Source of the DNA: Acidobacteriota bacterium
GTDB taxonomy: Bacteria; Acidobacteriota; Vicinamibacteria; Vicinamibacterales; UBA2999
DNA: 64,000 nucleotides
Direction: 5' to 3'
NCBI GenBank assembly: GCA_046726375.1
Contig: JBKPAJ010000007.1
Coordinates: 6,488-70,487, forward strand
A program made the translations under genes and the position numbers. Under the pieces are notes generated by a model. The model saw only the letters and a list, made by a program, of their open reading frames with translations. It did no database searches and was not told where the DNA came from. This document shows, in pieces, positions 7,676 to 30,193 of the stretch (positions are counted from its first letter, which is position 1; every line of letters begins with the position of its first letter).

Positions 7676-7741
7676 CTCCTTAACTGGCATTCCAGAAATG
7701 CTTTCGGTACAATCGCGAATGGTCCCAGGAGGATGGTTGTC

Positions 7742-8119
7742 ATGAAGCGCACGTTCGCTGTCCTGCTCGCCGCCGGCGTGATTGTGCTCGGGTCGGGTGC
7801 GACCTTCGCCCATCACTCGTTCTCGGCGACGTACTTCGAGGACAAAGAGCAGACGATCGAAGGGGAGATGGTGCAGTTCATGTACCGCAACCCGCACTCG
7901 TTTGTGCACGTCATGGACAAGGAGAATGTCCGCTGGGCGATCGAGTGGGGCGGCGGCGGGCAGTTGAGCCGGCAAGGCGTGACGCGCGAAACGTTGAAGT
8001 ACGGCGACCACGTGATCATCACGGGTGCGCCGGCTCGCAATCCCGACGATCACCGCCTGCGCATGAAAACGATTTTCCGCCCGAAGGATGGCTGGAAGTG
8101 GGGCGGCGTCGTCGAATAA
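7742..8119 (+). CDS. small secreted protein, mature N-terminus His-His (unknown family)
   Basis: AGGAGG at 7727-7732, then ATG 7742. Signal peptide MKRTFAVLLAAGVIVLGSGATFA, then HHSFSATYFED... I cannot verify a DUF assignment. Confidence 0.7.
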   Translation: MKRTFAVLLAAGVIVLGSGATFAHHSFSATYFEDKEQTIEGEMVQFMYRNPHSFVHVMDKENVRWAIEWGGGGQLSRQGVTRETLKYGDHVIITGAPARNPDDHRLRMKTIFRPKDGWKWGGVVE

Positions 8120-10292
8120 CGCCGCAAGCGTTAGAGTAATTCTTCTTCTCGTCTGGCTGATCGCAAGCGGAGCTGTGTACGCACAGCCCACCGCCGGTTC
8201 CTTCATCGTCAAGGTTGCCGATCAAACCGACGCGGCGCTGCCTGGCGTCGACGTCGAACTGCAGATTGAGGGACAGCCGCCGCGAACCGGCGTGACCAAT
8301 CCTCAAGGTGAGTTTGCGTTTACGAACCTTCCGCCCGGTCGCGCCGAGCTCGTTTGCAAACTGATCAACTTTGCCACGGTGCGCCGCGACGTGGCCGTCA
8401 CGCCCGGGCCGATGGCACGCATCACCGTCGTGATGCACCTGTCGCTCAACGCCGACGTCATCGTGACCGGGCAAAGCACCTTCCGCAACATCGCCGATCT
8501 CGACAACCCGGCAGAAAATCTCGTGGGAGTTGAATCTGCGGCAAGCCAGGGCGCAATCACGGCCAGACAGCTCGAAGCGCGACCCATCATGCGGCCGGGC
8601 GAGGTCCTCGAGACCGTCCCGGGCCTGATCGTCAGTCAGCACAGCGGGGAGGGAAAGCAAATCAGTATTACCTCCGCGGCTTCAATCTCGATCACGGGAT
8701 CGACTTCGCGACGACGATCGCAGGCACGCCGATCAATATGCCGTCGCATGGGCATTTTCACGGCTATTCGGATACGAATTCGTTGATACCCGAGCTCGTG
8801 AGCGGCGTGCAATTCAAGAAGGGCCCGTATTTCGCGGAGACGGCGATTTCTCCGCCGCCGGATCCGCGAACATCAACTACGTCAATCAGCTCGCACGGCC
8901 GATCGTGAATCTCAGCGCGGGCGCTGAGGAATGGGGTCGCGTCTTTGCCGCTGCATCGCCGCGCGTGAGCAACGGGTTCTTGCTGGGCGCGATCGAGCTC
9001 AATCACAACGACGGGCCGTGGAATCGGCCGGACGATTACCGCAAAGCGAACGGCCTGCTGCGTTATACGCAAGGCGATGCGCGCAAACGGGGACGGGGCG
9101 GCGATCGTTACGAACCTCTGCGTACCTCATTGGCTACGGCCTCAATCTCTTTTCGAACTTCACCTATTTCCTGGACGATCCGGTCAACGGCGATCAGTTC
9201 GAGCAGGCGGACCGTCGGCTCACGTCGGGCGGCCGTATCACTTACAAGATGCTCGGGCGCGTGAACGGCCGCAACGTGGAAAGCCCCTTTGGTGCGCAGG
9301 TGCGTCACGACGGCATCGGCACCATCGGGCTCTACAAGACGATCAAGCGGCAGCGCCTCGCCACGACACGCGACGACGCCGTGGACCAGACAGCGCTGGC
9401 CATGTTCGGTCAGAGCGAAATCGAGTGGAGCTCGCGTCTCAGGATGACGGCTGGTCTTCGCGCCGATCTCTACCGCTTCGACGTGACGGCGAGCGACCCG
9501 GTGAATTCGGGGCGCGATGTCGAGGGTCTGGTCAGTCCGAAGTTCGGCATGGTGCTCGGGCCCTGGGCCAGCACCGAGTTTTACCTGAACGCCGGCTTTG
9601 GATTTCACAGCAACGACGCACGCGGCGCGACGATCACGCGCGACCCGCTCACCGGTGAACCTGCCGCGCGGGTGACGCCGCTGGCGCGCGCGCGCGGAGC
9701 GGAAGTGGGTTTCCGCACGGTGCGATTGCGCGGCCTGCAAACGACGCTGTCGTTGTGGCGGCTCGATCTCGACTCGGAGTTGCTGTACGTGGGCGACATC
9801 GGAACGACAACCGCGACGCCGCCAACCTCGCGTTACGGCGTCGAGTTGGCGAACTATGCGCGTCTGAATAGATGGCTCACGCTCGATGCCGACATCTCGT
9901 TTTCACGCGCGCGCTTCACCGGCGGCGAAGTGGAAGGAGGTTATGCGCCCGGCGCGGTGGATCGCGTAATTTCCGCTGGGATCACCGCTGAACCGGTCCA
10001 TCGTTGGTTCGGCAGCATGCGCCTGCGGCACTTTGGTCCACGTGCGCTCGTGGAAGACGGCAGCGTGCGATCGGACCAGACCACGATCGTGAACGGCGAA
10101 GTCGGACTTCGGCTCTGGCCGCGGGCGCGGGTGACGGTGGAAGGGTTCAACCTGTTCGACGCGAAGGTGAGCGACATCGATTATTTCTACACGTCGCGAT
10201 TGCCCGGTGAGCCGGCCGAAGGCGTGGACGACATTCACACGCACCCGGCCCTGCCGCGTACGGCGAGAGTGGCGTTGCAGCTGACGTTTTGA
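8088..10292 (+). pseudogene. TonB-dependent receptor (CarboxypepD_reg N-domain + plug + barrel) disrupted by at least three frame changes
   Basis: Track pieces 8088-8786, 8905-9264 and 8931-10292, plus an unlisted frame segment, read as one receptor: ...GEVLETVPGLIVSQHSGEGK | ANQYYLRGFNLDHGIDFATTIAGTPINMPSHGHFHGYSD...KKGPYFAE | GDFSAAGSANINYVNQLARPIVNLSAGAEEW...LLRYTQGDAR | AYLIGYGLNLFSNFTYFLDDPVNGDQFEQ ... RVALQLTF. Frame changes lie near 8655-8658, 8840-8842 and within 9085-9122. Confidence 0.75.
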
Positions 10293-10302
10293 CGGCAGAA
10301 CT

Positions 10303-10395
10303 CTTCCAAGTCGTTCCTTGAGTTCAAAGTTCAAAGTTATTGGCAAAGTGTGTGAGTTAACTTTGAACTTGGAACTTGGAACTTGTAACTTTCGG
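10303..10395. repeat. GTTCAAAGTTC / GAACTTGGAAC word hairpin at a convergent gene junction
   Basis: Left arm cttccaagtcgttccttgagttcaaagttcaaagtt. Right arm aactttgaacttggaacttggaacttgtaac. The right arm overlaps the last codons of the MFS gene. Confidence 0.8.
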
Positions 10396-11712
10396 ATCCA
10401 TTGTCCAGCGCAGCGAGAACATCACGATTGCAGAGATCGCCGCGGGAACGGCGGCGGAATAAAACAGATCCTGCATCGACCATTGACGGCGAATGAGTTC
10501 GCCGGCGAGCACGGGGCCGACGATCGCGCCAAGGCGGCCGATGCCCAGGCCCCATCCGATGCCCGTCGATCGCAAGTAAGTGGGATAAAACGTGCCCGCC
10601 AGCGCGTTTACCGTCGGCTGACTTCCGACCACGCAGGATCCCGCGATAAAGACCACGACATACAACACCGCGAGCGCGATGCCTGGCTGTCCGATCGCGG
10701 CAATCGTGATCGCCGCAACCGCAAACGCCGTCGTGAGCACAGGAATGAATCCGAGGCGCCCGATCAACCACGCCAGCCAGAACGTGCCGAGCGTCCCGCC
10801 CACCTGCAGAGTCGTTCCGACGAGCACCGCCGTGGACGTTGGATATCCCAGCCCGCGGACGACAGTGGGCAGCCAGTTCGAGAGGAAGTACAGGTTATAA
10901 AGATTCATGAAGCAGACGATCCACAGAAGGATCGTGCCGGCCGCGCGCCCTTCACGAAACAGATGCACCACCGGCACGCCGCCGCGATTTTCTTCATGTA
11001 CGAGGAATTTCGTGTCAGGTCCAACTGACACTGTTGGATCGATACGCTGCAACCACTTTTCAACGCCGCGGCGATTCCGACTGCGCAGCACGAGGAATTG
11101 GAGCGACTCCGGCAGCCACACCCACATCAAGAGGGCAATCACCAGCGGCACAGCGCCACCGAAGTAAAACACCGAACGCCAGCCGAAATTCGGAATCAAC
11201 CATGCCGCGATGAACCCGCCGATCGCGGCGCCGGCGGTAAAGCCCACGGAGATTGTCGCCATGAGCGACACGCGCGAGCGCTTCGGACTGTATTCCCCGA
11301 TCAGTGCCGTTGCATTCGGGATGATCGATCCCAATCCGATGCCCGCGATGAATCGCACGATCAGCAGTTGCTGCACGTTGCTGGCTTGCGCCGTCACCAG
11401 CGTCATCAGCGAAAAGAACAGCGTCGCGCCAATCAGAATCGGGCGGCGTCCCAACTTGTCGCCGAGCATCGTGAACACGAGCGAGCCCACGAGCACGCCG
11501 AAGTTGCCGGCGCCGAAGACCGGACCGAGCGCTGCTTGCGGAATTCCCCACTCCTGGATGATGGCGGGCGCGGTGTATCCCACGGCCTGCACGTCGAAGC
11601 CGTCCATGATCAGACAGAGCGCGCACAGCACGAACAGCCCGATCTGCAGCGTTCCGATCCGGCTTCGGTCAACGATGTCGGCGATATTCAGCGTCGGCAC
11701 GGCGCACACCAT
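10357..11712 (-). CDS. MFS transporter, aromatic acid:H+ symporter-like
   Basis: Last 451 aa of track ORF 10357..12537, from ATG 11712. Twelve-TM pattern with LMDGFDVQAVGYTAPAI, GDKLGRRP and similar motifs, resembling the 4-hydroxybenzoate/gentisate transporter subfamily. Confidence 0.8.
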   Translation of the reverse strand: MVCAVPTLNIADIVDRSRIGTLQIGLFVLCALCLIMDGFDVQAVGYTAPAIIQEWGIPQAALGPVFGAGNFGVLVGSLVFTMLGDKLGRRPILIGATLFFSLMTLVTAQASNVQQLLIVRFIAGIGLGSIIPNATALIGEYSPKRSRVSLMATISVGFTAGAAIGGFIAAWLIPNFGWRSVFYFGGAVPLVIALLMWVWLPESLQFLVLRSRNRRGVEKWLQRIDPTVSVGPDTKFLVHEENRGGVPVVHLFREGRAAGTILLWIVCFMNLYNLYFLSNWLPTVVRGLGYPTSTAVLVGTTLQVGGTLGTFWLAWLIGRLGFIPVLTTAFAVAAITIAAIGQPGIALAVLYVVVFIAGSCVVGSQPTVNALAGTFYPTYLRSTGIGWGLGIGRLGAIVGPVLAGELIRRQWSMQDLFYSAAVPAAISAIVMFSLRWTMDPKVTSSKFQVQS

Positions 11713-11823
11713 AGCACGTGAGACGCTCCACTGTGCGATATCAGTGTTGACATCAGCCGGGCGCGGGAATAACGTAGCCGGGCCACTTGTCTGAACAACG
11801 TCGACCCCGCTTAGGAGGGTTTG

Positions 11824-14800
11824 ATGAGGCGCATCCTGAAGGTCCTGTCCCTGACAATTTCTCTGTGGGTCTTCGCGACCGGCGCGGCGTGGGCGCAGGC
11901 GACTGCGCAAATCAGCGGGGTGGTGCGAGATCAACAGGGTGGTGTGCTGCCGGGCGCTGATGTCACGGCCACGCAAACCGACACCGGCGCAAAACGCAGC
12001 GCCATGACCGACGTCGCAGGGTTCTACACCTTGCCCAACCTGCCCGTCGGCCCCTATCGGATTGACGTCACGCTGCAGGGATTCAAAGCCTTCTCGCAAA
12101 CCGGCATCGTCTTGCAGGTCAACGCCAGCCCGGTAATCAACGTGTCTCTGTCGATCGGCGAGCTGGCCGAAACCGTGTCGGTGCAGGGCGAATCGCCGCT
12201 GGTCGACACCTCGCGCGCCGGCATCGGGGAAGTGATTGAGAACGCGCGCATCATGGAGTTGCCACTCAACGGGCGCAACCCCACCGACTTGATCGAGCTG
12301 GCGGGCGCCGCGGTGAACGTGCCGGGGCAGGGCGCCTCCACCCGCAGCTTTCAGGGAAGCTCCGGCGGGCAGGGCATTTCCGTCGCCGGGGGCCAGACGT
12401 TCGGCACCGCGTACGTGCTCGACGGCGCGATGCACAACAACCCGTACGACAACTTGAATCTGCCGCTGCCGTTCCCCGATGCGTTGCAGGAGTTCCGCGT
12501 CGAAACCGGCGCCAGCGCCGCATCGAACGGCGTGCACTCGGGCGCATCGGTGAGCGCCGTCACCAAATCAGGGACCAACGTGTTCCACGGCGACGTCTTT
12601 GAGTTCTGGCGCAATCACGAGTTCAATGCCACCAACCCCTTCGCGCTCACCGGGCCCGACGGAAAACGCCGCGATGACGGCCTCAATCGTCATCAGTTCG
12701 GCGGCGTCATCGGCGGACCGCTCGTCAAGAACAGGTTGCATTTCTTCGCCGGCTATCAGGGAACGAAGATCGACCAGACGCCGACCGACAACATTGCCTT
12801 TGTGCCGACACCGGCGATGCTCAACGGAGATTTCTCGGCCATCACCTCGCCGGCATGCAATGCCGGACGTCAGATCACGTTGAACGCCCCCTTTGCGGGC
12901 AACCGGATCGATCCCGCGCGCTTCAGCCCTGCGGCGCTCAACCTCGCGCGTCGCTTGCCCTCGACAACCGATCCATGCGGACGCGTCGTGTTTGGCACTG
13001 CCGCCAATCGCGACGAAGGGCAGGTGGTGACGCGCGTCGACTATCAGTGGAAGCACAATCACACGATCTTTGGACGCTACATCGGCACCTCGTACAACAC
13101 TCCGCCGGCGCTGTCGATTACGCCGGACAATCTGTTGACGTCGCCCTTCGGTGGGTTCGACAACTTCGGTCACACGCTGACGGTGGGCGAGACGTGGGTG
13201 GTGAACTCGACGATGGTCAACTCCGTGCGATTCGCGTGGAACAACACCGATGTGCATCGCTATCACGAGGGCTACTTCAACGCCAACGATCTCGGCATCA
13301 ATATGTACAGCTACCTGGACGACTACTTCATCGCGAGCATCACGGGTGGCTTCAACGTCGGGAGCGGCGTCAACAACGAGGCGCGGTTCAAGACCACCAC
13401 GTATCAATTCAGCGATGACTTGACCTGGATCAGGGGCTCGCATCAAATCGGCTTCGGGATCAACGCCGCGCGCTGGGATTCCCTCTCGCTGGCGCACGTG
13501 CGCTCGCCCGGCACGTTCAACTTCAACGGCAACGTGACCGGTCTCGGCCTTGCGGACTTCCTGGTTGGAGTCTCGAGCCAGTTCCTGCAGGCGGCGCCGA
13601 ATACGCTCGACATGTATCAGTACTATTTCGCGCTGTACGGCGCCGACACCTGGCGCGTGAGCCCCAAGCTGACGCTGAACTACGGCTTGCGATGGGAGCC
13701 GTTCCTGCCGCAGCAGATTCCGAACGGCTACATCTATAATTTCGATCTCGATCGCTTCCGCCAGGGCGTCCACAGTCAGGTGTTCCCGCTCGCGCCGGCC
13801 GGATTCGTGTATCCCGGCGATCCTGAATTCGTGGGCGGTTATTCCGGGATGAACAAGCGGTGGACCAACTTCGCGCCCCGCGTCGCCGCGGCCTTTGATC
13901 CGAGCGGCGACGGTCGCACGACAATTCGCGCGGGCTACTCGCTCGGCTACGACTTCGTCAACGGCCAATATCACTTGAACACGTCGGTCGCGCCGCCGTG
14001 GGGCGCCGAGGTGCGGTTGACAAACGTGCCGCTCGATAGTCCGTTTGCCACGTTCCCGGGCGGCAATCCGTTTCCACGCGTCTTCAGCACGTCAACCACG
14101 TTCCCTGCGTTCGGGTCCTTTCTCGCCGTCGATCCGGATACCGACAACACGCGCCAGCACTCGTGGAACCTCGTGTATCAGCGCCAGCTTGGCAGCAACA
14201 TGCTGGTGTCGGCGAGCTACATCGGCAGCCACACGTCGAACCTGTGGAACATGAAAGCGCTCAATCCGGGCGTGTTCCTCGGCACCGGCCCGTGCACGCT
14301 GCCGCTCGCGACCCCGCCCAATCAGGCCGTCTGCTCGACCGACGCGAACTTGAACGCGCGCCGCGCGTTGAGCCTCGAGAACCCGAGCGAAGCACGTTTC
14401 ATCGGTCACCTCGATCAACACGATCCGAGCGGCCGCGCCAACTACAACGGCCTGCTCCTTTCCTTTTCGCGGCGTCAGGTGCGCGGTATCGGCTACAGCG
14501 GCAACTACACGCTGTCGAAATGCGACAGCCACCCGACGCAGTCGCTGCCGAACGTCGGCACCGGCTGGGCCGATCCGAACAATCCGGATTACGACTACGG
14601 CCCATGTGAGTCGGATCGGCGTCATATCGTGAACGCAACCGTTGGCTACGATCTGCCCGAGTTCTCCAACGCCGCGCTGCGGGCGATCGCATCCGATTGG
14701 CGCGTAAACGGCATTTTCCGCGCGCAGTCGGGTGGGCCGCTTACGATCACGTCCGGTCTCGATCGCTCGATGACGGGGGTCACCACCAATCAGCGGGCGG

Positions 14801-15171
14801 ATCTCGTCGGCGGCGATGGCTACGGCGACAAGTCGTTGAACCAGTGGCTTGATCGCGCCGACTTCGCGCAACCCGCGCTGGGCACGCTCGGCAATTCCGA
14901 ACGCGGGGGCTGGCGCGGTCCGTCGCGCTGGACGATCGACATGGTCGTCGCGCGCATGTTCCGCCTCGGTGGAACGCACGAAGTTGAACTGCGCCTGGAA
15001 ACGTTCAACCTCACCAACCATTTCAACTGGGGCAATCCGGTGACGAACCTGGCGAACCAGAACTTCGGTCGAATTCTCGGCGGCAACGGCGGGGGGGCCG
15101 GCAGTGCGGCGGAACAGGCCGCAGGCACGAGCCCGCGTGTGTTGCAATTCGGCATCAAGTACAACTTCTGA
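11824..15171 (+). CDS. TonB-dependent receptor with N-terminal carboxypeptidase-regulatory-like domain
   Basis: 1115 aa. AGGAGGG precedes the start. Signal peptide, ISGVVRDQQGGVLPGADVTATQTDTGAKRSAMTDVAGFYTLPNLPVGPY (CarboxypepD_reg), plug, long barrel, terminal ...LQFGIKYNF. Confidence 0.9.
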   Translation: MRRILKVLSLTISLWVFATGAAWAQATAQISGVVRDQQGGVLPGADVTATQTDTGAKRSAMTDVAGFYTLPNLPVGPYRIDVTLQGFKAFSQTGIVLQVNASPVINVSLSIGELAETVSVQGESPLVDTSRAGIGEVIENARIMELPLNGRNPTDLIELAGAAVNVPGQGASTRSFQGSSGGQGISVAGGQTFGTAYVLDGAMHNNPYDNLNLPLPFPDALQEFRVETGASAASNGVHSGASVSAVTKSGTNVFHGDVFEFWRNHEFNATNPFALTGPDGKRRDDGLNRHQFGGVIGGPLVKNRLHFFAGYQGTKIDQTPTDNIAFVPTPAMLNGDFSAITSPACNAGRQITLNAPFAGNRIDPARFSPAALNLARRLPSTTDPCGRVVFGTAANRDEGQVVTRVDYQWKHNHTIFGRYIGTSYNTPPALSITPDNLLTSPFGGFDNFGHTLTVGETWVVNSTMVNSVRFAWNNTDVHRYHEGYFNANDLGINMYSYLDDYFIASITGGFNVGSGVNNEARFKTTTYQFSDDLTWIRGSHQIGFGINAARWDSLSLAHVRSPGTFNFNGNVTGLGLADFLVGVSSQFLQAAPNTLDMYQYYFALYGADTWRVSPKLTLNYGLRWEPFLPQQIPNGYIYNFDLDRFRQGVHSQVFPLAPAGFVYPGDPEFVGGYSGMNKRWTNFAPRVAAAFDPSGDGRTTIRAGYSLGYDFVNGQYHLNTSVAPPWGAEVRLTNVPLDSPFATFPGGNPFPRVFSTSTTFPAFGSFLAVDPDTDNTRQHSWNLVYQRQLGSNMLVSASYIGSHTSNLWNMKALNPGVFLGTGPCTLPLATPPNQAVCSTDANLNARRALSLENPSEARFIGHLDQHDPSGRANYNGLLLSFSRRQVRGIGYSGNYTLSKCDSHPTQSLPNVGTGWADPNNPDYDYGPCESDRRHIVNATVGYDLPEFSNAALRAIASDWRVNGIFRAQSGGPLTITSGLDRSMTGVTTNQRADLVGGDGYGDKSLNQWLDRADFAQPALGTLGNSERGGWRGPSRWTIDMVVARMFRLGGTHEVELRLETFNLTNHFNWGNPVTNLANQNFGRILGGNGGGAGSAAEQAAGTSPRVLQFGIKYNF

Positions 15172-15180
15172 GGTCGGGCA

Positions 15181-16047
15181 ATGAAAGTTCTTATCTTTGT
15201 GGGAGCGCTGCTGGTGAGCGTCCCCGCATTCGCTCAAGTCGATCTCTCCGGCGAATGGACACCCGTCCGCGAGGAAGACAACACCGGCAATACCGAGCTC
15301 GGCGACTGGGGCGGCATCCCGATGAACCAGGCGGCGCGCGAACGCGCCATGGCCTGGATGGCGTCGATCCAAACGTTGCCCGAATGGCAATGCCGTCCAC
15401 ACGCGGCGACCTACATCTCGCGCGGGCCCTCGCAGCTGCGCATCTGGAAGGAAGTGGACCCGGTGTCACGCGAGGTGACGGCGTGGCATATGGAGTGGCT
15501 GCGCTCGGTGGAAAAAGCCGTCTACATGGACGGCCGCGCGCGGCCCTCAGCGAACGCGCCGCACACATGGGGCGGTTTCTCACTCGGCGAGTGGCAAGGC
15601 GACATCCTCAAGTTCACTACGACGCACATCAAAGAAGAGTATTTGAAGCGCAACGGCGTGTTCCACAGCGATCGCGCCACCGTGACCAATTACTTGATTC
15701 GGCGCGGCAACTATCTGACGTGGTTGATGGTGGAATACGACCCGGCGTACTTGACCGAGCCACTGATCCGCAGCACCGAATATCAGATCGATCAGCATCA
15801 GAACATGCCGCCTTACCCGTGCAACGTCGTCGAGGAAGTCGATCGGCCGAAAGGGATCGTGCCGCACCACCTGCCGAGCAGCCGCTCGTATCTGCAGGAA
15901 GTTCAGTACTTCGCGGATAAGTACGGCATTCCGTTCGAGGCCGTGCAATCGGGCGCCGAGACGATGTACCCGGAGATCGTGCAGAAGATCGAGAAGTACC
16001 GCAAAGCGGCGCCGGCTAACACTCCGCGACGCCAGCAAGAGAAGTAG
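15181..16047 (+). CDS. secreted protein of unrecognised family (type A, 'EWQCRPH' motif)
   Basis: Signal peptide MKVLIFVGALLVSVPAFAQ. Motifs DLSGEW, LPEWQCRPH, YLKRNGVFHSDRATVTNY, DPAYLTEP, PYPCNVVEE. A paralog forms the N-terminal half of 20774..22432. Confidence 0.75.
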   Translation: MKVLIFVGALLVSVPAFAQVDLSGEWTPVREEDNTGNTELGDWGGIPMNQAARERAMAWMASIQTLPEWQCRPHAATYISRGPSQLRIWKEVDPVSREVTAWHMEWLRSVEKAVYMDGRARPSANAPHTWGGFSLGEWQGDILKFTTTHIKEEYLKRNGVFHSDRATVTNYLIRRGNYLTWLMVEYDPAYLTEPLIRSTEYQIDQHQNMPPYPCNVVEEVDRPKGIVPHHLPSSRSYLQEVQYFADKYGIPFEAVQSGAETMYPEIVQKIEKYRKAAPANTPRRQQEK

Positions 16048-16049
16048 CC

Positions 16050-17162
16050 ATGAGATCGCATTCGTTCACGTTTATCGCCGCGCTGTGCGCCGCGGCCGTC
16101 GTCGGTGCTCAAACGCCAACTCAGAAGGCGGCGGACACCGAGCTCGAAGCGCTGCACGTCAAGGGCAACATCTACACCATCTTCGGCGCGGGTGGGAACG
16201 TCACGGTGTCGGTCGGCAAAGACGGTGTGTTGGTGGTCGACACCGGGTTGCCGCAGAACGCCGACAAACTGCTTGCGACCATTCAGCGTTTGCAGCGCGA
16301 GGCGCAGGCGAAGGAAGCGCCACCCTCGCTCGGGTGGGGCGCGGAAACCCGCGGCACGCTGCAGATGTCGCTCAATGGCGTTGCGCCGCCGAAACCGATC
16401 CGCTACATCGTCAACACGCACGTGCATCCGGATCATGTCGGCGGCAACGAAACGCTGCGCGCGTCGGGAAAGACGTTCACGGGCGGCAACGTCGCCGGCG
16501 ATATTTCCGACGCGACCGAAGGGGCAATGATCCTCTCGCATGAGAATGTGCTCAATCGGCTCGGGACGCCGCCGGCGGGTCAGACGCCGGCGCCCGAAGG
16601 CGCGCTGCCGACCGACACGTATTACGGCGATGCGATGAAGCTGAGTCACTTCTTCAACGGTGAAGGCGTGCAGCTGTTTCATCCGAAGAACGCCCACACG
16701 GATGGCGATACGTTCGTCTTTTTCCGCGGCTCCGACGTGATCGTCGGTGGCGATTTGTTTGTGATGACGACCTACCCATTCATCGACATCGAGCGGGGAG
16801 GCCACATCAACGGGATTATCGATGCCGTGAACCACATGCTCGATCTCACGGTGCCGGAGTTCCGCCTCGAGGGCGGCACGATGGTGGTGCCCGGACACGG
16901 CCGGCTGTCCGATTCGGGCGATCTCGCGTACTACCGCGACATGCTCACGATCATTCGCGATCGCGTGCAGGACCTGGTCAAGAAAGGGATGACGCTCGAG
17001 CAGGTCAAGGCCGCGCGCCCCACCAAGGATTACGACCCGCGCTGGGGTGCGACGAGCGGTTTCTGGACGACCGATCAATTCGTCGACGCGATCTACAAGA
17101 ACTTGTCCCCGAAGCCAGCGGCGAAGCCGACGCCAAAACCGTCGAAAGGCAGCGCACGTTGA
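16050..17162 (+). CDS. secreted MBL-fold metallo-hydrolase
   Basis: Signal peptide, then YIVNTHVHPDHVGGN (HxHxDH motif) and later HTDGD, PGHG. Confidence 0.85.
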   Translation: MRSHSFTFIAALCAAAVVGAQTPTQKAADTELEALHVKGNIYTIFGAGGNVTVSVGKDGVLVVDTGLPQNADKLLATIQRLQREAQAKEAPPSLGWGAETRGTLQMSLNGVAPPKPIRYIVNTHVHPDHVGGNETLRASGKTFTGGNVAGDISDATEGAMILSHENVLNRLGTPPAGQTPAPEGALPTDTYYGDAMKLSHFFNGEGVQLFHPKNAHTDGDTFVFFRGSDVIVGGDLFVMTTYPFIDIERGGHINGIIDAVNHMLDLTVPEFRLEGGTMVVPGHGRLSDSGDLAYYRDMLTIIRDRVQDLVKKGMTLEQVKAARPTKDYDPRWGATSGFWTTDQFVDAIYKNLSPKPAAKPTPKPSKGSAR

Positions 17163-17977
17163 TGGTGCGCGTCGCGACGATTCTCGGCTGCACGCTCGCG
17201 GCGTGCGTGGCAGTGGCCGCGCAGCAATACCCCGGCGCGCCGCCGGCCGCACCGGCTGGGCAAGCGCCGGTCGCAAATCCACGTGCGGCGGCGCCGATCG
17301 ATCTCACCGGCTATTGGGTGTCGATGTTGACCGAAGACTGGCGCTGGCGTGTCGTCACTCCGCCGAAAGGCGACGTCCTCTATCTGCCGGTGAACGCGGA
17401 GGGACGGAAGCTCGCGGAGGCGTGGGACCCGGCCCAGGACGAAGCCGCGGGTGAGCAGTGCAAGCCGTTCGGCGCTGGTGGTGTGATGCGCTTGCCAGGG
17501 CGGCTGCACATCACGTGGGAAAGCGATCAGGTGCTGCGCCTCGATACCGACGCTGGGACGCAGACGCGGCGCTTCTACTTCGGTCAGGCCCCGGCGGCGA
17601 CTGAGCCAACGTGGCAGGGCCGATCAGTTGCGAACTGGCAGTTTTATGGACCGGCACGCGGCCGCGGACGCGGCGCGATGCAGGGATTGGAGCTGCCGAC
17701 GGGCACCGCCAGCCCAGCGCGACGCGGTGAGCTTCGTGTGGTCACGCGTGATCTGCGGCCCGGCTATTTGCGGCGCAACGGGGTGCCGTACAGCGAGAAC
17801 ACAGCGATCACCGAGCACTTCACGACGATCAAGGAGGACAACGGCGACGAGTACCTCGTGGTGACGACGATCCTCGAAGACCCGAAGTATCTGGCGGCGC
17901 CGTACGTGCGCAGCTATCAGTTCAAGAAGCAGCCGGATAGCAAGGGTTGGAACCCGACGCCGTGTTCGGTGAAATAA
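17162..17977 (+). CDS. secreted protein of unrecognised family (type B, 'TEDWRWR' motif)
   Basis: ATG 17162 overlaps the MBL stop (TGATG). Motifs DLTGYWVSMLTEDWRWRVVTPPKGD, EQCKPFGAGG, YLRRNGVPYSENTAITEHF, DPKYLAAPY, PTPCSVK. A paralog forms the C-terminal half of 20774..22432. Confidence 0.75.
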   Translation: MVRVATILGCTLAACVAVAAQQYPGAPPAAPAGQAPVANPRAAAPIDLTGYWVSMLTEDWRWRVVTPPKGDVLYLPVNAEGRKLAEAWDPAQDEAAGEQCKPFGAGGVMRLPGRLHITWESDQVLRLDTDAGTQTRRFYFGQAPAATEPTWQGRSVANWQFYGPARGRGRGAMQGLELPTGTASPARRGELRVVTRDLRPGYLRRNGVPYSENTAITEHFTTIKEDNGDEYLVVTTILEDPKYLAAPYVRSYQFKKQPDSKGWNPTPCSVK

Positions 17978-17992
17978 ACATCGTACGCAGGA

Positions 17993-18112
17993 GCGAACCC
18001 TTAGGTTCGCCTAGCAATCGCGGACCTGAAGGGCCGCGCTACATGAAATCGCATGCGGGCGCGGACCTTTAGGTCAGCTTCATGCGCAGCCGCGGACCTT
18101 GAGGTGCGCCCA
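17993..18112. repeat. array of four REP-like stem-loops GCG(G/A)ACC-N4-GGTNCGC
   Basis: gcgaacc-ctta-ggttcgc (17993), gcggacc-tgaa-gggccgc (18020), gcggacc-ttta-ggtcagc (18061), gcggacc-ttga-ggtgcgc (18092). Confidence 0.7.
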
Positions 18113-18128
18113 GAATCCGAGGTTTTCA

Positions 18129-19154
18129 TTGCTTCTTCCCACTACTTTGGTCGGCAGCTTCCCGCAACCGGACTGGCTGATCGATCGCAAGAAACTCGCC
18201 GGACGCTTCCCCCCGCGTACGCGAGCCAAAGAACTCTGGCGCATCCCGGAACCATGGCTGGCCGAAGCGCAGAACGATGCGACGCTCATCGCGATTCGCG
18301 CGCAGGAAGACGCCGGCCTCGACATCGTGAGCGACGGCGAGATTCGGCGCGAGAGCTACTCCAACCGGTTTGCGACGGCGCTCGACGGCGTCGATCTCGA
18401 CAATCCAGGCACGGCGCTCGATCGCTCTGGACATCCCAATCCTGTACCGCGCATCGTCGGCAAGATCCGGCGGCGTCATCCGGTCGAAGTGGAGGATGTG
18501 CACTTTCTCCGTCGACACGCGAAGAAGCAAATCAAGATCACCGTTCCTGGCCCCTTCACAATGTCGCAACAGGCGCAGAATGACTTCTACGCGAGCGAAG
18601 AAGAAGCGGCAATGGACTACGCGGCGGCCGTCAACGAAGAGATCCGCGATCTGTTTGCCGCCGGCGCAGACGTCGTCCAGGTGGACGAGCCGTATATGCA
18701 GGCGCGTCCGGAGAAGGCGCGTCAGTACGGGTTGCGCGCGCTGAACCGCGCGCTCGAAGGCGTCACCGGCACGACGGCGGTGCACATCTGTTTCGGGTAT
18801 GCCGCCATCATTCACGACCGTCCGTCGGGCTACTCATTTTTGCCCGAGCTAGCCGACTGCAGTTGCAAGCAGGTGTCGATCGAAACGGCGCAGTCGAATC
18901 TCGATTGCTCCGCGCTCAAACCGCTGAGCGGTAAGCAGATTCTTCTTGGCGTGATCGATTTGTCGGACATGAACGTCGAGGCGCCGGAAACCGTCGCCAA
19001 TCGCATCCGCCGGGCGCTGCCGTATGTGGATGCGAGGAACATCATTGCTTCGACGGACTGCGGCATGAAGTACCTGCCTCGCGACGTCGCCGCTGGCAAG
19101 CTGCGCGCGCTGGTCGAAGGCGCCGGGCTCGTGCGCCGCGAATTGGAGTCGTAG
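18129..19154 (+). CDS. cobalamin-independent methionine synthase (MetE C-terminal domain)-like protein
   Basis: LLPTTLVGSFPQPDWL ... DIVSDGEIRRESY ... VQVDEPY ... HICFGY ... STDCGM. I prefer TTG 18129 (GAGG 6 nt upstream) because the track start 18099 lies inside the last REP-like hairpin. Confidence 0.8.
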   Translation: MLLPTTLVGSFPQPDWLIDRKKLAGRFPPRTRAKELWRIPEPWLAEAQNDATLIAIRAQEDAGLDIVSDGEIRRESYSNRFATALDGVDLDNPGTALDRSGHPNPVPRIVGKIRRRHPVEVEDVHFLRRHAKKQIKITVPGPFTMSQQAQNDFYASEEEAAMDYAAAVNEEIRDLFAAGADVVQVDEPYMQARPEKARQYGLRALNRALEGVTGTTAVHICFGYAAIIHDRPSGYSFLPELADCSCKQVSIETAQSNLDCSALKPLSGKQILLGVIDLSDMNVEAPETVANRIRRALPYVDARNIIASTDCGMKYLPRDVAAGKLRALVEGAGLVRRELES

Positions 19155-19156
19155 AC

Positions 19157-20020
19157 ATGCGGTTGTGCCGATTTGGGGACTCCCGCCTCGGTCTCGTGGA
19201 CGGCACGACGCTGCGCGACGTCACGGCAGCGCTCGACGTGCTGCCGGCGTATCACTATCCGTTGCCGACCTACGACGTCATGATCGCGAATCTCGACAAG
19301 GTCAAGGAGCGTGCCGGCGCACTCTCGAAGTCGGCGCCGGAGTTGCCGCTGTCGAGTGTGAAGCTGCTCAGTCCGGTTGCGAATCCAGGCAAGGTGGTCG
19401 GCGCGCCGTTGAATTACAAGAAGCACATGGACGAAGTGCGCGAGCAGGCGCAACTGCATCACGGCAACGAAGGCCACACGGCGCCGATTCATTCCGCGGG
19501 TGTCTTCCTGAAGGCGTCCAGCTCGGTTGTCGGTCCGAGTGAAGGCATTGCCGTGCGTAAGCTCGATCGCCGCAACGATCATGAAGTGGAGCTTGGATTT
19601 GTGATCGGCAAGGAAGCCAGCAACGTGCCGGCGGGCGATGCGCTGAAGTACGTCGCCGGCTACTTCATTGGTCTCGATATCACGATTCGCGGGCCCGAAG
19701 AGCGAAGCCTCCGGAAATCCGTTGATTCCTATACGGTGGTAGGGCCGTGGCTCGTCACCGCGGACGAGATCCCGAATCCTGGCGAGCTCGATTTGCAAAT
19801 CGCCGTGAACGGCGAGATGCGTCAACGCTCGAATACGAAGCACCTGATCCTCGGCGTGCCCGAGTTGATCGAGTACGCGACATCGTTCTACACGCTCTAT
19901 CCGGGCGACATCGTCATCACCGGCACGCCCGAAGGGGTGAGCCCGATTCAGCCGGGCGACACCATCGTGGCGACGATCGAGAAGATCGGGACGATGCAGG
20001 TTGATGTCCGCGAGGCCTAA
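19157..20020 (+). CDS. fumarylacetoacetate hydrolase (FAH) family hydrolase
   Basis: 287 aa. NYKKH ... HEVELGFVIGK ... FIGLDIT ... GDIVITGTPEGV is the classic FAH-fold pattern. Confidence 0.85.
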   Translation: MRLCRFGDSRLGLVDGTTLRDVTAALDVLPAYHYPLPTYDVMIANLDKVKERAGALSKSAPELPLSSVKLLSPVANPGKVVGAPLNYKKHMDEVREQAQLHHGNEGHTAPIHSAGVFLKASSSVVGPSEGIAVRKLDRRNDHEVELGFVIGKEASNVPAGDALKYVAGYFIGLDITIRGPEERSLRKSVDSYTVVGPWLVTADEIPNPGELDLQIAVNGEMRQRSNTKHLILGVPELIEYATSFYTLYPGDIVITGTPEGVSPIQPGDTIVATIEKIGTMQVDVREA

Positions 20021-20777
20021 GGTGAGTTCGCGCGTTTATCGCATTGGACAAATCGTGCCGAGCTCGAACACCACGATGGAGACGGAGATTCCGGCGATGC
20101 TTCGCGCGCGCGAAGCCGTGGAGCCGGAGCGATTCACCTTCCATTCGAGCCGCATGCGCATGAAGACAGTCACTAAAGAAGAGCTCGCGGCGATGGATGC
20201 AGAATCCGATCGCTGTGCCGCGGAGCTCGCCGATGCGCGCGTGGACGTCATCGGCTACGCGTGTCTGGTGGCGATCATGAGCATGGGGAAGGGTTATCAC
20301 TGCCAATCGCAGTCGCGATTGCAATCCGTGGCGGCGCGCGAGGGGCACCCGATTGCGGTCGTGACGAGCGCAGGTGCGCTGGTTGACGGTGTCAAGCGGC
20401 TTGGTGCGAAACGCGTGGCGATGGTGTCGCCCTACCTCAAACCCCTCACCGCACTCGTGTGCGACTACATCCAAGCGGAGGGAGTCGAGGTGGCCGACCG
20501 CGTGTCGCTCGAGATTGCCGACAACGTCGAAGTTGGACGGCAACACCCGATGGCGCTTCTCGACATCTACAAACGGCTGGACCTCACGGGCGTCGATGCA
20601 CTGGTTTTGTCATCGTGCGTGCAAATGCCATCACTAGCCGCAATCCCCGCAGTGGAGAAGGAAACCGGCTTGCCGGTGGTGTCGGCGGCGGTATGCACGA
20701 CGTACGCGATGCTCGACCAATTGGGACTCAAACGCCACGTTCCGAACGCAGGGACATTGTTGGCGGGTGATTTATGA
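20004..20777 (+). CDS. maleate cis-trans isomerase / Asp-Glu racemase superfamily protein
   Basis: YRIGQIVPSSNTTMETEIPAML ... IGYACLVAIM ... LSSCVQMPS, with two catalytic-type Cys contexts. The start may instead be GTG 20022 (GAGG upstream). Confidence 0.8.
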   Translation: MSARPKVSSRVYRIGQIVPSSNTTMETEIPAMLRAREAVEPERFTFHSSRMRMKTVTKEELAAMDAESDRCAAELADARVDVIGYACLVAIMSMGKGYHCQSQSRLQSVAAREGHPIAVVTSAGALVDGVKRLGAKRVAMVSPYLKPLTALVCDYIQAEGVEVADRVSLEIADNVEVGRQHPMALLDIYKRLDLTGVDALVLSSCVQMPSLAAIPAVEKETGLPVVSAAVCTTYAMLDQLGLKRHVPNAGTLLAGDL

Positions 20778-22432
20778 AGCGGCTGATCGCGGACCTAAGG
20801 GTGCGCGCTACATCTGTGTTGTGGGCTACATGTGCGTCGCGGGCTACATTTGTGTCATGGGCGTCTTTTTCGTGGGCGACCCGGCCGTCATCTTCTTCAT
20901 TTGCAGCGCGGCCGTCATTTTCTTCTGTAGCGCCCACTTTTGGGTCCGCGGTGCTTGTCCTCGCGCTCGCGACACCGGCCTATTCGCAGATCGATCTGAG
21001 CGGCGAATGGGCGCCGCGCTTTTACGAGGATCAACCGGAACGCGTCCCGGGGCCCGATCTCGGCGATTACCTTGGCATTCCCATCAGCGACGCCGCGCGC
21101 TGGCGGGCTGAAGCATGGAGCGCCTCGATCATGACGCTGCCGGAATGGCAGTGCCGCCCGCACTCTGCCGACTACATCTGGCGCGGCCCGTCGCCGGTGG
21201 TCATCTCGAAGGAAGTCGATCCCGTGTCGCGCGAGATCACGAGCTTCAAACTCGAATGGCTACGATCGGTCGAGCGGGCCATCTATCTCGATGGCCGAAA
21301 TCCGCCGTCTGAAAACGCGCCTCACACGTGGGCCGGCTTTTCCGTCGGCCGGTGGACCGGCGACATCCTCACGGTTACAACCACGCACCTGAAAGAAGGC
21401 TACGTTCGTCGCAACGGCTTGCCCAGGAGCGATCAGGCGACGCTCACCGAGCATTTCATCCGCAACGGCGACGTGCTGACCGTTGTGACGATCGTGACCG
21501 ATCCGGTGTACCTCACTGAACCGTTCATCCGCACCACCGACTACGAGCTCGATCTCAAGCAGCAAAACCCTCCCTATCCGTGTCACGTTGTCGAAGAAAT
21601 CGATCGGCCGAAAGGGATGGTGCCGCACATTGCACCGGGCACGAATCAGTCGGTGCAGGAGTTTGCCACGAAGCACAACGTGCCCGCCGAGGCTGCGCGC
21701 GGTGGCGCGGCGACGATGTATCCGGTGCGCGTGACGGCCGGCAAGACGAGCGCCGAAACGCGGACGCCTCTAGGTGCCGGTGTTCCGGTGGACTTGACGG
21801 GGCAATGGGTTTCGGTCGTAACCGAAGATTGGCGCTGGCGTATGGTGACGCCACCGAAAGGCGATTACGCGAGCGTCCCGCTCAATCCAGAGGGCGTGAA
21901 GATCGTCAACGCCTGGGATCCGGCGAAAGACGAAGCGGCCGGGCAGCAATGTCGCGCCTACGGAGCAGGTGGCATCATGCGCATGCCCGGTCAGATTCGC
22001 ATCGCCTGGCAAGACGATCGAACACTCAAAGTAGACACAGAAGCCGGATCGCAAACACGCGTGTTCCACTTTGGCGGTGCTGCGCTTGGCGACACGCAGG
22101 CGGGTTGGCAGGGTGTATCGAGTGCACAGTGGCAGTATGCGGGTCGGCCCGCTCGCAGTGGCGGAGCACGTCCCGCTGGCGGCTCGTTGCGCGTCACCAC
22201 TACCCGCTTGTTGCCAGGCTACCTGAGAAAGAACGGCGTGCCGTACGGCGCTAACGCGCGCGTGACCGAATACTTGAATCGCGTGGACGAACCCAATGGC
22301 GATTCGTGGTTGATCGTCACGACGCTGGTCGAGGATCCGCAATACCTCGCGCAACGATTTGTCACGAGCTCGCATTTCAAGAAGGTCGCGGACGGATCGC
22401 CGTGGAATCCAATGCCATGTTCGGCGAAGTGA
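20774..22432 (+). CDS. secreted fusion of the type A and type B unknown domains (A-B protein), with an in-frame element in its signal-peptide region
   Basis: ATGA overlap with the previous gene. Residues ~75-330 align with 15181..16047 (LPEWQCRPH, PYPCHVVEE). Residues ~345-552 align with 17162..17977 (TEDWRWRMVTPPKGD, QQCRAYGAGG, NPMPCSAK). Confidence 0.75.
   Translation: MKRLIADLRVRATSVLWATCASRATFVSWASFSWATRPSSSSFAARPSFSSVAPTFGSAVLVLALATPAYSQIDLSGEWAPRFYEDQPERVPGPDLGDYLGIPISDAARWRAEAWSASIMTLPEWQCRPHSADYIWRGPSPVVISKEVDPVSREITSFKLEWLRSVERAIYLDGRNPPSENAPHTWAGFSVGRWTGDILTVTTTHLKEGYVRRNGLPRSDQATLTEHFIRNGDVLTVVTIVTDPVYLTEPFIRTTDYELDLKQQNPPYPCHVVEEIDRPKGMVPHIAPGTNQSVQEFATKHNVPAEAARGGAATMYPVRVTAGKTSAETRTPLGAGVPVDLTGQWVSVVTEDWRWRMVTPPKGDYASVPLNPEGVKIVNAWDPAKDEAAGQQCRAYGAGGIMRMPGQIRIAWQDDRTLKVDTEAGSQTRVFHFGGAALGDTQAGWQGVSSAQWQYAGRPARSGGARPAGGSLRVTTTRLLPGYLRKNGVPYGANARVTEYLNRVDEPNGDSWLIVTTLVEDPQYLAQRFVTSSHFKKVADGSPWNPMPCSAK
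20789..20950. mobile_element. 162-bp palindromic (MITE/REP-like) element inserted in frame in the coding region
   Basis: Terminal inverted repeats GCGGACCTAAGGGTGCGCGCTACA ... TGTAGCGCCCACTTTTGGGTCCGCG. Internal tandem words. Excising it restores a canonical signal peptide (see findings). Confidence 0.6.
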
Positions 22433-22439
22433 GGAAACC

Positions 22440-23510
22440 ATGAATTACCCAACGACAACGTTCGTTGAAAAACCCGGATTGACTGCGGAACGGCAGGAAT
22501 TCTATGGCCGTCTCGATACGAAAAACACTGCCCCGTTGTGGGAAGTGCTCAATCGCCTGGTCACACCGGAACCACAGCCGACGACAGTTCCTGCGCACTG
22601 GCGCTGGTCCGATATGCGGCCGCTGCTGCTCGAGGCCGGGCGCCTCATCACTGCGAAGGAAGCCGAGCGGCGCGTGCTCGTTCTCGAGAATCCGGGACTG
22701 CGACAACATCCAGCGTTCAAGTCGCAGATTACGCAGAGCCTCTATGCCGGATTGCAATGCATCATGCCCGATGAAGTGGCGCCAAGCCATCGCCACGTGG
22801 CCTCCGCACTTCGTTTCGTCATCGAAGGCGAAGGCGCGTACACCGCCGTGGAAGGCGAGCGCACGAGGATGCGGCCGGGCGATTTCATTCTGACGCCGTC
22901 GTGGACGTTTCACGATCACGGCAATCCCGCCAGCAACCCGGTGATTTGGCTCGACGGCCTCGACGTTCCGATCGTCAACTCGTTCGACACGAGCTTTGCC
23001 GAGCATCATCCGATGGAGACGCAGCCAGTGAGTCGCGAGGAAGGCGACGCCCTAGCGCGCTATGGCGCCAACCTTCTGCCGCTCGAGTACAAGCCATCGC
23101 GACTCTCGGCGCCGGTTTTTACGTATCCGTACGAACGAAGCCGCGAAACGCTTGCACGGCTGCAGCGCACGAGCGAGGTCGATGCGTGTCACGGCATCAA
23201 GCTGCAGTACATCAATCCAGCGACGGGCGGTTATCCGATGCCGACGATTGGCGCCTTTCTGCAGGTACTGCCGAAAGGATTCGACGGTGCGTCGTACCGC
23301 TCGACCGACGCGACGATCGTCTGCGTCGTCGAAGGGCATGGGCGGTCCCGGATTGCGGATGCGACGTTTTCGTGGGAGCCGCACGACGTGTTTGTCGTGC
23401 CGTCGTGGGCGCCGGTGTCTCATTCCGCGCACGACGAGTGTGTGCTCTTCAGCTTTTCCGATCGGCCGGCGCAAAAGGCGCTTGGCCTTTGGCGCGAGCA
23501 ACAGGGCTAA
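22440..23510 (+). CDS. gentisate 1,2-dioxygenase (bicupin)
   Basis: GAGG then ATG 22440. [17 protein letters not shown] ... [39 protein letters not shown] ... [11 protein letters not shown] is very characteristic of gentisate dioxygenases. Confidence 0.85.
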
Positions 23511-23512
23511 CC

Positions 23513-25156: not shown

Positions 25157-25170
25157 GCTACGGCATAAAC

Positions 25171-25251: not shown

Positions 25252-25286
25252 CGGAGCGCGGTGGGATCGCGCCGGGGGGCGACCGA

Positions 25287-26006: not shown

Positions 26007-26015
26007 AGCGCGTCA

Positions 26016-26222: not shown

Positions 26223-26224
26223 GC

Positions 26225-30192: not shown

Positions 30193-30193
30193 C

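Follow-up and report, generated by a model that had tools for sequence, protein, structure and literature searches.

A predicted periplasmic module of Acidobacteriota that combines two paralogous calycin-like proteins with a metallo-β-lactamase-fold protein

What role could be played by two secreted proteins of no recognized family whose genes flank the gene for a metallohydrolase, immediately downstream of that for an outer membrane receptor? This question is raised by a 64,000-nucleotide stretch of DNA from an Acidobacteriota bacterium (assembly GCA_046726375.1, contig JBKPAJ010000007.1, positions 6,488-70,487, forward strand), hereinafter the window, in which four intact open reading frames (ORFs) on the plus strand encode a TonB-dependent receptor (TBDR), a protein that we denote A, a metallo-β-lactamase (MBL)-fold protein and a protein that we denote B. 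The conserved gene order and the repeated gene fusions described here predict that two paralogous barrels of a ligand-binding type and the MBL-fold protein constitute one periplasmic unit. An earlier note on this DNA had drawn attention to the tight packing of the four genes, and the spacings are those that it gave, namely, 9 nt between the TBDR and A genes, 2 nt between the A and MBL genes, and a 1-nt overlap of the ATG of the B gene with the MBL stop codon. This ATG, at 17162, is the start used by a database protein of 271 aa (P0121) that is 100% identical to B. Chance ORFs or a non-coding artefact are ruled out by thousands of conserved homologues and by agreeing independent gene calls. A scan of positions 10300-26300 detected no sigma-70-like promoter, and terminator-like sites in this region are not more common than in shuffled sequence.

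Two exported paralogues and their predicted fold

The homology of A and B is far beyond chance: the two proteins share 28% identity over 237 columns in a BLASTP comparison (E 1e-16), and the profiles of the A and B families are matched by hhalign with a probability of 100% over 189 columns (E 1e-39). All the motifs that the earlier note had listed are present (DLSGEW/DLTGYW, QCRPH/QCKPF, W.G...W, YLKRNGV/YLRRNGV, DPAYLTEP/DPKYLAAP and P-C), and its view of A and B as ancient duplicates, with a common scaffold and one conserved pair of cysteines, is borne out by the alignment of 114 A and B sequences, in which 13 positions, including G24, W26, C71 and C214 (A numbering here and below), are invariant. 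Mature A and mature B contain exactly two cysteines each, those that are invariant throughout the family, and these probably form a disulfide between the lid and the end of the barrel in the predicted structures described below. Beyond the common scaffold, A has a specific, conserved C-terminal tail (approximately, residues 215-288) and three histidines, H74, H128 and H149, that are invariant in the 100 A sequences compared and not in B. These histidines, along with E68, Q70, K151, E193 and E219, are conserved in at least 95% of the A sequences, and B lacks them at the aligned positions.

The signal peptides that had been noticed in A and B are of the Sec type, with an AxA cleavage site followed by Q and without a lipobox, and the same holds for the MBL-fold protein, for the A~B and A~MBL fusion proteins (the tilde denotes fusion) and for their relatives. 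In A, the signal peptide ends in VPAFA and the mature protein begins with QVDLSGEW. In B, the signal peptide ends in AVAA and is followed by an additional Pro/Gly/Arg-rich spacer of 20-25 residues, starting with QQYPGAPPAAPAGQ, that leads into APIDLTGYW, the last six residues of which are the conserved motif.

Searches of Pfam-A and NCBIfam returned no match for A, B or fused A~B, the 114 members of the family alignment (A1) do not match Pfam even at E≤1, and the family profile, when compared with the sequences in the Protein Data Bank (PDB), yielded only chance matches (antibody, chitobiase; E>0.1). The family thus was correctly described as unrecognized, and by the same searches its members do not belong to the sequence families of fatty acid-binding proteins (FABPs) or lipocalins. 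A search with A as the query recovered 3,140 clusters at 90% identity (E≤1e-3) and a search with B at least 7,994, two counts that should not be summed because the match lists may overlap. An exhaustive hidden Markov model search of 1.84 billion representatives at 50% identity gave 6,845 matches at E≤1e-3, of which 661 are at E≤1e-30. In the 90%-identity clusters, all members with a source name are labelled "hypothetical protein". Taken together with the structure predictions, these searches suggest that A and B make up a large, unannotated family that lies outside every described sequence family and has a calycin-like, FABP-type topology.

To assess the distribution and genomic context of the family, we retrieved 78 species-representative genome loci (numbered with the prefix L), to which the window proteins were mapped by tblastn. 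Judging from these loci and from named database sources, the carriers are mainly metagenome-assembled genomes of Acidobacteriota (Vicinamibacterales, Bryobacterales, Terriglobia and Acidiferrales), with a minority of a few Steroidobacteraceae and other Gammaproteobacteria and one member of Caulobacterales. Two contigs labelled Acidimicrobiia, that is, monoderm Actinomycetota (L054 and L055), also hold the A-MBL-B genes, in L055 along with a TBDR; these contigs are probably misbinned. One acidobacterial metagenome-assembled contig (L009) has a gene order nearly identical to that of the window and proteins that are 91-96% identical, and the window sequence itself was found solely in soil DNA metagenomes or in runs of unknown type.

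For A, AlphaFold2 predicted a confident all-beta core (pLDDT 78 overall and >90 for residues 86-203), in which an N-terminal strand with the GxW motif is followed by a helical insert of approximately 55 residues that ends at C71, nine strands and a less confident helical tail. The model of the A~B fusion (493 residues), for which we used an alignment seeded with 25 natural fusions (A3), has a pLDDT of 90.0 and a pTM of 0.91, with the topology of A in both halves; given these scores, the two barrels are predicted to adopt a defined mutual orientation. A Foldseek search against the PDB retrieved calycin-type barrels only, namely, tardigrade secretory abundant heat-soluble (SAHS) proteins, FABPs, UnaG, avidins and streptavidin, at an identity of about 10%, with probabilities of 0.9-1.0, E values between 1e-3 and 1e-1 and target-normalised TM values of 0.45-0.6 (0.5-0.6 for the best matches of A), and no match to the two-barrel arrangement of A~B. 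In the predictions, A and both halves of A~B are antiparallel up-and-down barrels of one plus nine strands, the invariant G24 and W26 supply the calycin G-x-W signature in the strand 24-28, and R197, conserved in at least 90% of the sequences, would lie within the last strand (195-203). Because of these structural neighbours, the invariant GxW and the conserved last-strand arginine, we consider A and B to be a putative new family of calycin-like, FABP-type proteins.

The predicted resemblance to calycins (FABPs, SAHS proteins, avidin/streptavidin and lipocalins) consists in the up-and-down barrel, the GxW motif in the first strand and the basic residue in the last one, and the helical insert between strands 1 and 2 is a feature of FABPs in particular. 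However, this lid is more than twice the length of the FABP helix-turn-helix, and A and B further differ from calycins in the absence of a detectable sequence relationship, in TM values of only ~0.5, in the invariant cysteine pair and in being bacterial and exported. They also appear to act as an obligate, sometimes fused pair, in which A is distinguished by the 70-residue tail and the three invariant histidines.

The A-MBL-B cassette

Genes in the 78 loci were called with a simple codon-usage caller, and all the resulting proteins were clustered. The conserved unit that emerges is A-MBL-(DUF6152)-B, encoded on one strand. Complete cassettes include 75 of the 101 A genes, 61 without a DUF6152 gene and 14 with one between MBL and B; among the remaining A genes, 13 are in A-MBL pairs only, 3 are in A-B pairs and 8 are alone. 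The clusters contain the three proteins at a ratio of about 1:1:1 (91 A, 91 MBL and 86 B), and several genomes harbour two or three cassettes side by side. The genes, moreover, are repeatedly fused. Among the 78 loci, nine contain A~MBL as a single ORF (L073 has two of them), three contain MBL~B and two contain A~B, the last of these fusions being present also in the window. Dozens of A~MBL proteins of ~630 aa, with the PF00753 domain, have been called independently by JGI, NCBI and ENA, and such proteins account for about 26 of the top 150 representatives of the family. In one A~MBL locus, the gene order is TBDR, major facilitator superfamily (MFS) transporter, FAA hydrolase, cupin, A~MBL and B, where the A~MBL and B genes overlap by 4 nt.

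These observations indicate that A, MBL and B very probably form one functional unit. The earlier note had cast A and B as partners of both the receptor and the hydrolase. The hydrolase part of this idea is supported by the 75 complete cassettes and by the fusions, whereas the association with the receptor is facultative: only 17 of the 75 cassettes have a TBDR gene at most two genes away, so that A and B are to be regarded as partners of the hydrolase in the first place and of the receptor in some lineages only. The findings that could have overturned the association did not materialize, in that no characterized family with an unrelated role was matched by A or B, and synteny with the hydrolase is very strong, that with the receptor being partial.

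The window encodes, 3 kb downstream of the cassette, an A~B fusion that the earlier note overlooked, along with the neighbouring genes for the gentisate pathway, an aromatic-acid symporter and an esterase. In BLASTP comparisons, the N-terminal half of this protein shows 59% identity with A (E 1e-109), and the C-terminal half shows 54% identity with B (E 8e-85). There are about 25 full-length homologues of the fusion in the database, and it is found also in L009, L052 and L088. Tandem repeats occupy positions 20807-20862 (3.1 copies of the 18-nt unit GCTACATCTGTGTCGTGG) and 20881-20930 (two copies of CGGCCGTCATYTTCTTC), between the stop codon of the upstream gene for an Amdase-family protein and the A~B signal peptide; because these repeats fall inside the long ORF that begins with the ATG at 20774, which overlaps the upstream stop, the gene start is uncertain. 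The mature protein begins near 20990 (QIDLSGEW). Similar short repeats follow the GntR gene (26018-26220) and the MFS gene (10321-10391) of the window, and these intergenic repeats may be regulatory or REP-like (akin to repetitive extragenic palindromes).

The MBL-fold protein is a bona fide member of its superfamily, with a Lactamase_B domain (PF00753, E 4e-13, 50 bits against a cutoff of 22.7), the HxHxDH motif and downstream His, Asp and His ligands. The protein encoded in the window retains the full binuclear ligand set (H124, H126, D128, H129, H211, H216, D235 and H283, in the arrangement HVHPDH...H...D...H). Its nearest sequences in the PDB are B1/B2 beta-lactamases (E 5e-8) and chlorothalonil dehalogenase (E 7e-5), and it falls far below the NCBIfam cutoffs for class B beta-lactamases (38.8 bits against 100 for bla_class_B_core, and 29-34 bits against 200-240 for the B1, B2 and B3 models). 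The best NCBIfam match, SoxH_rel_PQQ_2, at 83 bits, likewise is below the cutoff of 280.

This best, sub-threshold match recalls the SoxH-related hydrolases of the "quinoprotein relay system" (TIGR04558/TIGR04559), and for 9 of the 75 complete cassettes, a pyrroloquinoline quinone (PQQ) dehydrogenase gene is no more than two genes away, in many cases accompanied by genes for cytochrome c. Against an assignment to such a system, apart from the score of the MBL, are the lack of any SoxYZ-like carrier among the genes seen and the distance of ~18 kb to the nearest PQQ dehydrogenase gene in the window. The product of the window ORF at 35567-37618 is a PQQ-dependent dehydrogenase with a fused cytochrome c domain; in other genomes, PQQ dehydrogenase genes directly adjoin cassettes in L013, L015, L016, L024, L035, L038, L045-L047, L051 and L084, in some of which the cytochrome c genes are separate.

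Two families of small proteins recur in or next to the cassettes. A DUF6152 family member is encoded between MBL and B in the 14 cassettes mentioned above (L020-L083), and others are found in the window at 7733-8119, adjoining the gene for a different TonB receptor, and in L003 (9912-10301). In these proteins, the mature N-terminus, HHSF..., directly follows the AxA cleavage site, which together with a conserved NPH motif suggests a metal site. A kinship of DUF6152 with A and B was ruled out (hhalign probability <5%). A survey of the literature retrieved no paper that mentions DUF6152, none that combines Acidobacteria, TonB-dependent, MBL fold and lipocalin, and none on an A-MBL-B cassette. 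The second family, DUF6644, consists of four-helix membrane proteins (166 aa), and its genes occur in 2-4 tandem copies directly after B in L067, L075, L077-L079, L081 and L083, which belong to Steroidobacteraceae and Acidiferrales.

A possible mechanism and its alternatives

In the mechanism that we propose, A and B would be duplicated, Sec-exported calycin-type barrels that pack into a fixed two-barrel unit, and A, B and the MBL-fold protein would make up one periplasmic module, most likely a physical complex. The barrels would be the part responsible for substrate binding and specificity, holding a poorly soluble aromatic molecule and presenting it to the metal centre of the MBL-fold protein which, in the case of the window, with its complete binuclear zinc-type site, would hydrolyse an ester or lactone bond. 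We infer an aromatic ester or lactone as the substrate because the cassette is located next to genes for an aromatic-acid symporter, gentisate 1,2-dioxygenase (GDO), an FAA-family hydrolase and a carboxylesterase exported by the twin-arginine translocation (Tat) pathway (Table 1). Import of the compound through the outer membrane would be the task of the TBDR; its processing in the periplasm would involve the A-MBL-B module together with the A~B fusion, as a second unit, and the carboxylesterase; the divergently encoded aromatic-acid/H+ symporter would carry the released acid, of the hydroxybenzoate type, into the cytoplasm; and GDO, the FAA-family hydrolase and an isomerase-like enzyme of the racemase family would degrade it there under GntR/FCD control. 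For this proposal as a whole, including the complex, the presentation of an aromatic substrate to the MBL-fold protein and the cleavage of an ester or lactone that feeds the gentisate route, we estimate a probability of roughly 0.5. A role of A and B in substrate capture and hand-off, as the earlier note had envisaged, is plausible and fits the predicted ligand-binding barrel, and the chances that they are substrate-binding subunits appear to us about even.

The proposed architecture is reminiscent of other hydrolases. Alkylsulfatases of the SdsA1 type combine an MBL domain with an SCP2-like domain, and in Pab87/DUF3471 proteins, a serine beta-lactamase fold is followed by a C-terminal lipocalin-like domain. 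In both cases, a hydrolase core is joined to a small lipid- or ligand-binding domain, as A is to the N-terminus of the MBL-fold protein in many lineages. A and B differ from these domains in fold and family, come as two paralogous partners and usually are separate polypeptides, and about half of their MBL partners have an altered metal site.

Several observations weigh against the proposal. The structural matches of A and B are weak (E about 1e-3 to 1e-2, TM about 0.5 by target length, ~10% identity), and therefore "calycin" applies at the level of the fold, from which ligand binding is an extrapolation. The three invariant histidines of A and several of its invariant acidic and basic residues look more catalytic or metal-binding than expected of a passive pocket. 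The full binuclear ligand set is kept in only 35 of 80 cassette MBLs, the rest being altered at the first-site histidines: about 16 of the 80 have SxDxDH, and about 20 lack the whole first site (H124, H126 and H216) while retaining D128, H129, H211, D235 and H283. These altered proteins still are encoded in fully conserved cassettes (orthologues in L009-L086). It follows that the chemistry of the module cannot be hydrolysis throughout, and in many lineages, the MBL-fold protein may be a scaffold. The linkage of the three genes also is not without exceptions, as A-B pairs are found without an adjacent MBL in L006-L008, in L018 and in the fused paralogue of the window, and a close relative of the window (L088) has A-MBL without B. 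Finally, flanking genes differ between genomes (PQQ dehydrogenases and cytochrome c, VOC dioxygenases, GCV_T, cupins), so that the substrate class is not fixed.

Some of these same observations can be read to mean that A itself is the catalyst, a metal-dependent subunit built around H74, H128, H149 and acidic residues, with B as a non-catalytic twin and the MBL-fold protein carrying out a neighbouring step or serving as a scaffold. The residues that distinguish A from B would be explained in this way, as would the invariance of A next to MBL partners about half of which have lost first-site ligands, and the presence of A-B pairs or A~B fusions directly beside catabolic genes in the absence of an adjacent MBL; calycin-fold enzymes, furthermore, exist, such as phenolic acid decarboxylase, allene oxide cyclase and lipocalin-type prostaglandin D synthase. 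We nevertheless consider this reading unlikely, given that most of the residues common to the two proteins are structural ones (G, W, P, C), that the top structural neighbours are binding proteins rather than enzymes and that, in a covariation test, no A or B column switches cleanly with the type of the MBL metal site. The best association for A in this test was 0.54, and the weak associations of A and B columns with the MBL site probably are phylogenetic in origin.

Alternatively, A and B could be, mainly, soluble shuttles that accept a compound from the receptor plug, in a niche like that of SusD or of hemophores, with the MBL-fold protein being incidental. An orthologous TBDR gene is located directly upstream of A not only in the window but also in L001, L009-L012, L025, L028, L030, L044, L049, L053 and L056, the predicted barrels have a binding-protein fold, and the TBDR linkage of 17 among 75 cassettes looks, in our judgement, above chance. 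Such a role appears improbable because 58 of the 75 cassettes lack a TBDR gene at a distance of up to two genes; the MBL, by contrast, belongs to every cassette as defined here, and numerous lineages encode it as a fusion with A or B; no fusion of A or B to a receptor was found among the representatives examined. The comparison with SusD, which the earlier note had offered as a speculation, holds only as a loose functional analogy, namely, that as in the SusC/SusD systems of Bacteroidota, the gene next to that of the receptor would encode a partner that handles the substrate without being an enzyme. SusD caps its receptor and is a surface lipoprotein with an alpha-helical, TPR-like fold, whereas A and B, in the models, are all-beta and of an unrelated fold, carry signal peptidase I signals without a lipobox or other surface-export signal, presumably are soluble in the periplasm and track the MBL gene. 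The receptor is not of the SusC type either (13.7 bits against a cutoff of 368 for TIGR04056).

A and B also might serve the MBL-fold protein: as metallochaperones similar to ZinT/YodA, they could supply it with metal, or else they could assist in its maturation, inhibit it or protect it. The tight linkage and fusions with the MBL and the invariant histidines of A are compatible with such a function, as is the HH at the mature N-terminus of DUF6152 proteins that often are encoded within the cassette, and periplasmic calycin-like proteins that bind metal (ZinT) or inhibit metalloproteases (Inh/APRin) are known. With regard to ZinT/YodA, A and B have no Pfam match, and the three invariant histidines of A would be the candidate metal ligands. 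A 1:1 covalent fusion to the client in many lineages would be unusual for a chaperone or inhibitor, two paralogous partners would be superfluous for metal delivery, ligand-depleted MBLs retain both of them, and A~B units are found beside catabolic genes at a distance from any MBL; thus, an auxiliary function of this kind is highly improbable.

Returning to substrate presentation by the two barrels, we tentatively extend the proposal to a widespread, so far unrecognized three-part periplasmic machine of soil Acidobacteriota and some Steroidobacteraceae and Caulobacterales, in which an FABP-like heterodimer would sit on an MBL-fold protein, the histidine triad of A might be catalytic or bind metal, the MBL centre would have been remodelled in about half of the cases, and some lineages would rely on a chemistry other than simple hydrolysis; such a machine might be the gateway that processes receptor-imported plant or humus aromatics prior to ring cleavage. 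Acidobacteriota are among the most abundant soil bacteria, and much of their exported proteome is unannotated. If the proposal is correct, A and B would be accessories of MBL-fold enzymes that handle the substrate in a way not previously described, the cassette would provide a handle on the uptake and processing of aromatic, probably ester-linked, plant and humic compounds, with relevance for soil carbon turnover and for the mining of esterases and lactonases, and thousands of "hypothetical protein" entries could be renamed.

Surrounding genes and the gentisate context

The features of the window that pertain to the cassette and its neighbourhood are listed in Table 1. The TBDR, of the acidobacterial type, contains OMP_b-brl_4 (PF25183, residues 247-1088, E 1e-190) and CarboxypepD_reg (PF13620, E 3e-19) domains; its assignment as a TonB-dependent receptor with plug and barrel includes a Plug match that is weak and below the cutoff (E 0.006). 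Another, classical TBDR gene, the one that adjoins the DUF6152 gene of the window (about 8160-10292), is disrupted by four or more frame changes when compared with the intact orthologue of 656 aa in L009, and is either a pseudogene or affected by indel errors.

Table 1. The A-MBL-B cassette and adjacent genes in the window
Feature	Position	Strand	Description
Aromatic-acid/H+ symporter-type MFS	10357-11712 (start uncertain; caller gives 11712)	-	Divergent from the TBDR gene; Pfam MFS_1, Sugar_tr
TBDR	11824-15171 (start 11821/11824)	+	1116 aa; CarboxypepD_reg N-domain and OMP_b-brl_4 barrel, acidobacterial type
Protein A	15181-16047	+	288 aa; exported; predicted calycin-like (FABP/avidin-type) barrel and A-specific C-terminal tail
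MBL-fold metallohydrolase	16050-17162	+	370 aa; exported; Pfam Lactamase_B, HVHPDH motif
Protein B	17162 (ATG)-17977; alternative TTG 17159	+	Exported paralogue of A, without the C-terminal tail
MetE-like (cobalamin-independent methionine-synthase/URO-D fold) cytoplasmic enzyme	18099-19154	+	Meth_synt_2 E 1e-31, URO-D E 3e-8
FAA-hydrolase family enzyme	19157-20020	+	Candidate maleyl- or fumarylpyruvate hydrolase; Pfam FAA_hydrolase E 6e-54
Asp/Glu-racemase-superfamily (Amdase family) protein	20001-20777	+	Candidate maleate isomerase-type; PF17645 E 4e-18
A~B fusion paralogue	20774-22432	+	3 kb downstream of the cassette; N-half A-type, C-half B-type
GDO	22440-23510	+	Equivalog-level NCBIfam match (TIGR02272) of 22461-23510 with 535 bits, cutoff 442
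Tat-exported type-B carboxylesterase	23513-25156	+	Pfam COesterase E 7e-93; N-terminus MINRRVFLG..., twin-arginine
GntR/FCD-family regulator	25248-26006	+	Pfam GntR and FCD; position kept in L009, L011, L012, L044 and L088

Downstream of the cassette, the gentisate pathway is represented by the GDO equivalog and the FAA_hydrolase protein, the substrate of which is a candidate assignment only; the Amdase-family protein is a candidate maleate isomerase-type enzyme by virtue of its family membership and the gentisate context. The MFS protein scores below the cutoff for aromatic acid/H+ symport (TIGR00895, 380 bits against 418; PcaK-like, 339 bits), and the MetE-like protein is below that of its NCBIfam model (PRK09121, 274 bits against 392). 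The true start of the carboxylesterase gene is upstream of that suggested by the ORF listing, and the twin-arginine signal at the N-terminus of the protein places it in the periplasm. The GntR/FCD protein is likely the local regulator. Judging by these assignments, the exported set would comprise A, B, the MBL-fold protein, the A~B fusion, the receptor and the esterase, and the cytoplasmic part would be a gentisate route that looks glutathione-independent.

The same gene set is present in L001, L006, L009, L013-L019, L044, L046 and L087, including Vicinamibacterales-like genomes, and the close relative L088 has an additional tannase-family esterase gene after the GntR gene. Across the 78 loci, the most frequent neighbours are TBDR (31 loci), DUF6152 (23), FAA hydrolase (18) and PQQ dehydrogenase, often with cytochrome c (18), followed by GDO and aromatic-acid MFS (16 each), MetE-like proteins (13), carboxylesterases (12-15), DUF6644 membrane proteins (10) and VOC-type dioxygenase-like proteins (8); GCV_T-family proteins and small cupins recur as well. 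The FAA hydrolase and GDO genes are paired beside cassettes in many loci, the divergent MFS gene adjoins 13 of the 75 cassettes, and COesterase genes adjoin cassettes in Bryobacterales, Steroidobacteraceae and other groups.

A possible parallel is the DdvT-type system of Sphingobium sp. SYK-6, which reportedly includes an MFS inner-membrane partner and for which, to our knowledge, neither periplasmic barrel proteins nor an MBL have been described. This system and the window have in common the clustering of a TBDR gene with genes for an aromatic-acid MFS symporter and cytoplasmic ring-cleavage enzymes; the receptor of the window differs in subtype (OMP_b-brl_4 and CarboxypepD_reg) and comes from another phylum. 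For DdvT, it has been described that a lignin-derived aromatic acid passes the outer membrane by way of a TBDR (PMC6874591).

Further downstream, on the minus strand (27535-32977), the window contains two adjacent genes for MacB-like/FtsX permeases of ~900 aa, a pairing that is typical of Acidobacteriota and is unrelated to the cassette.

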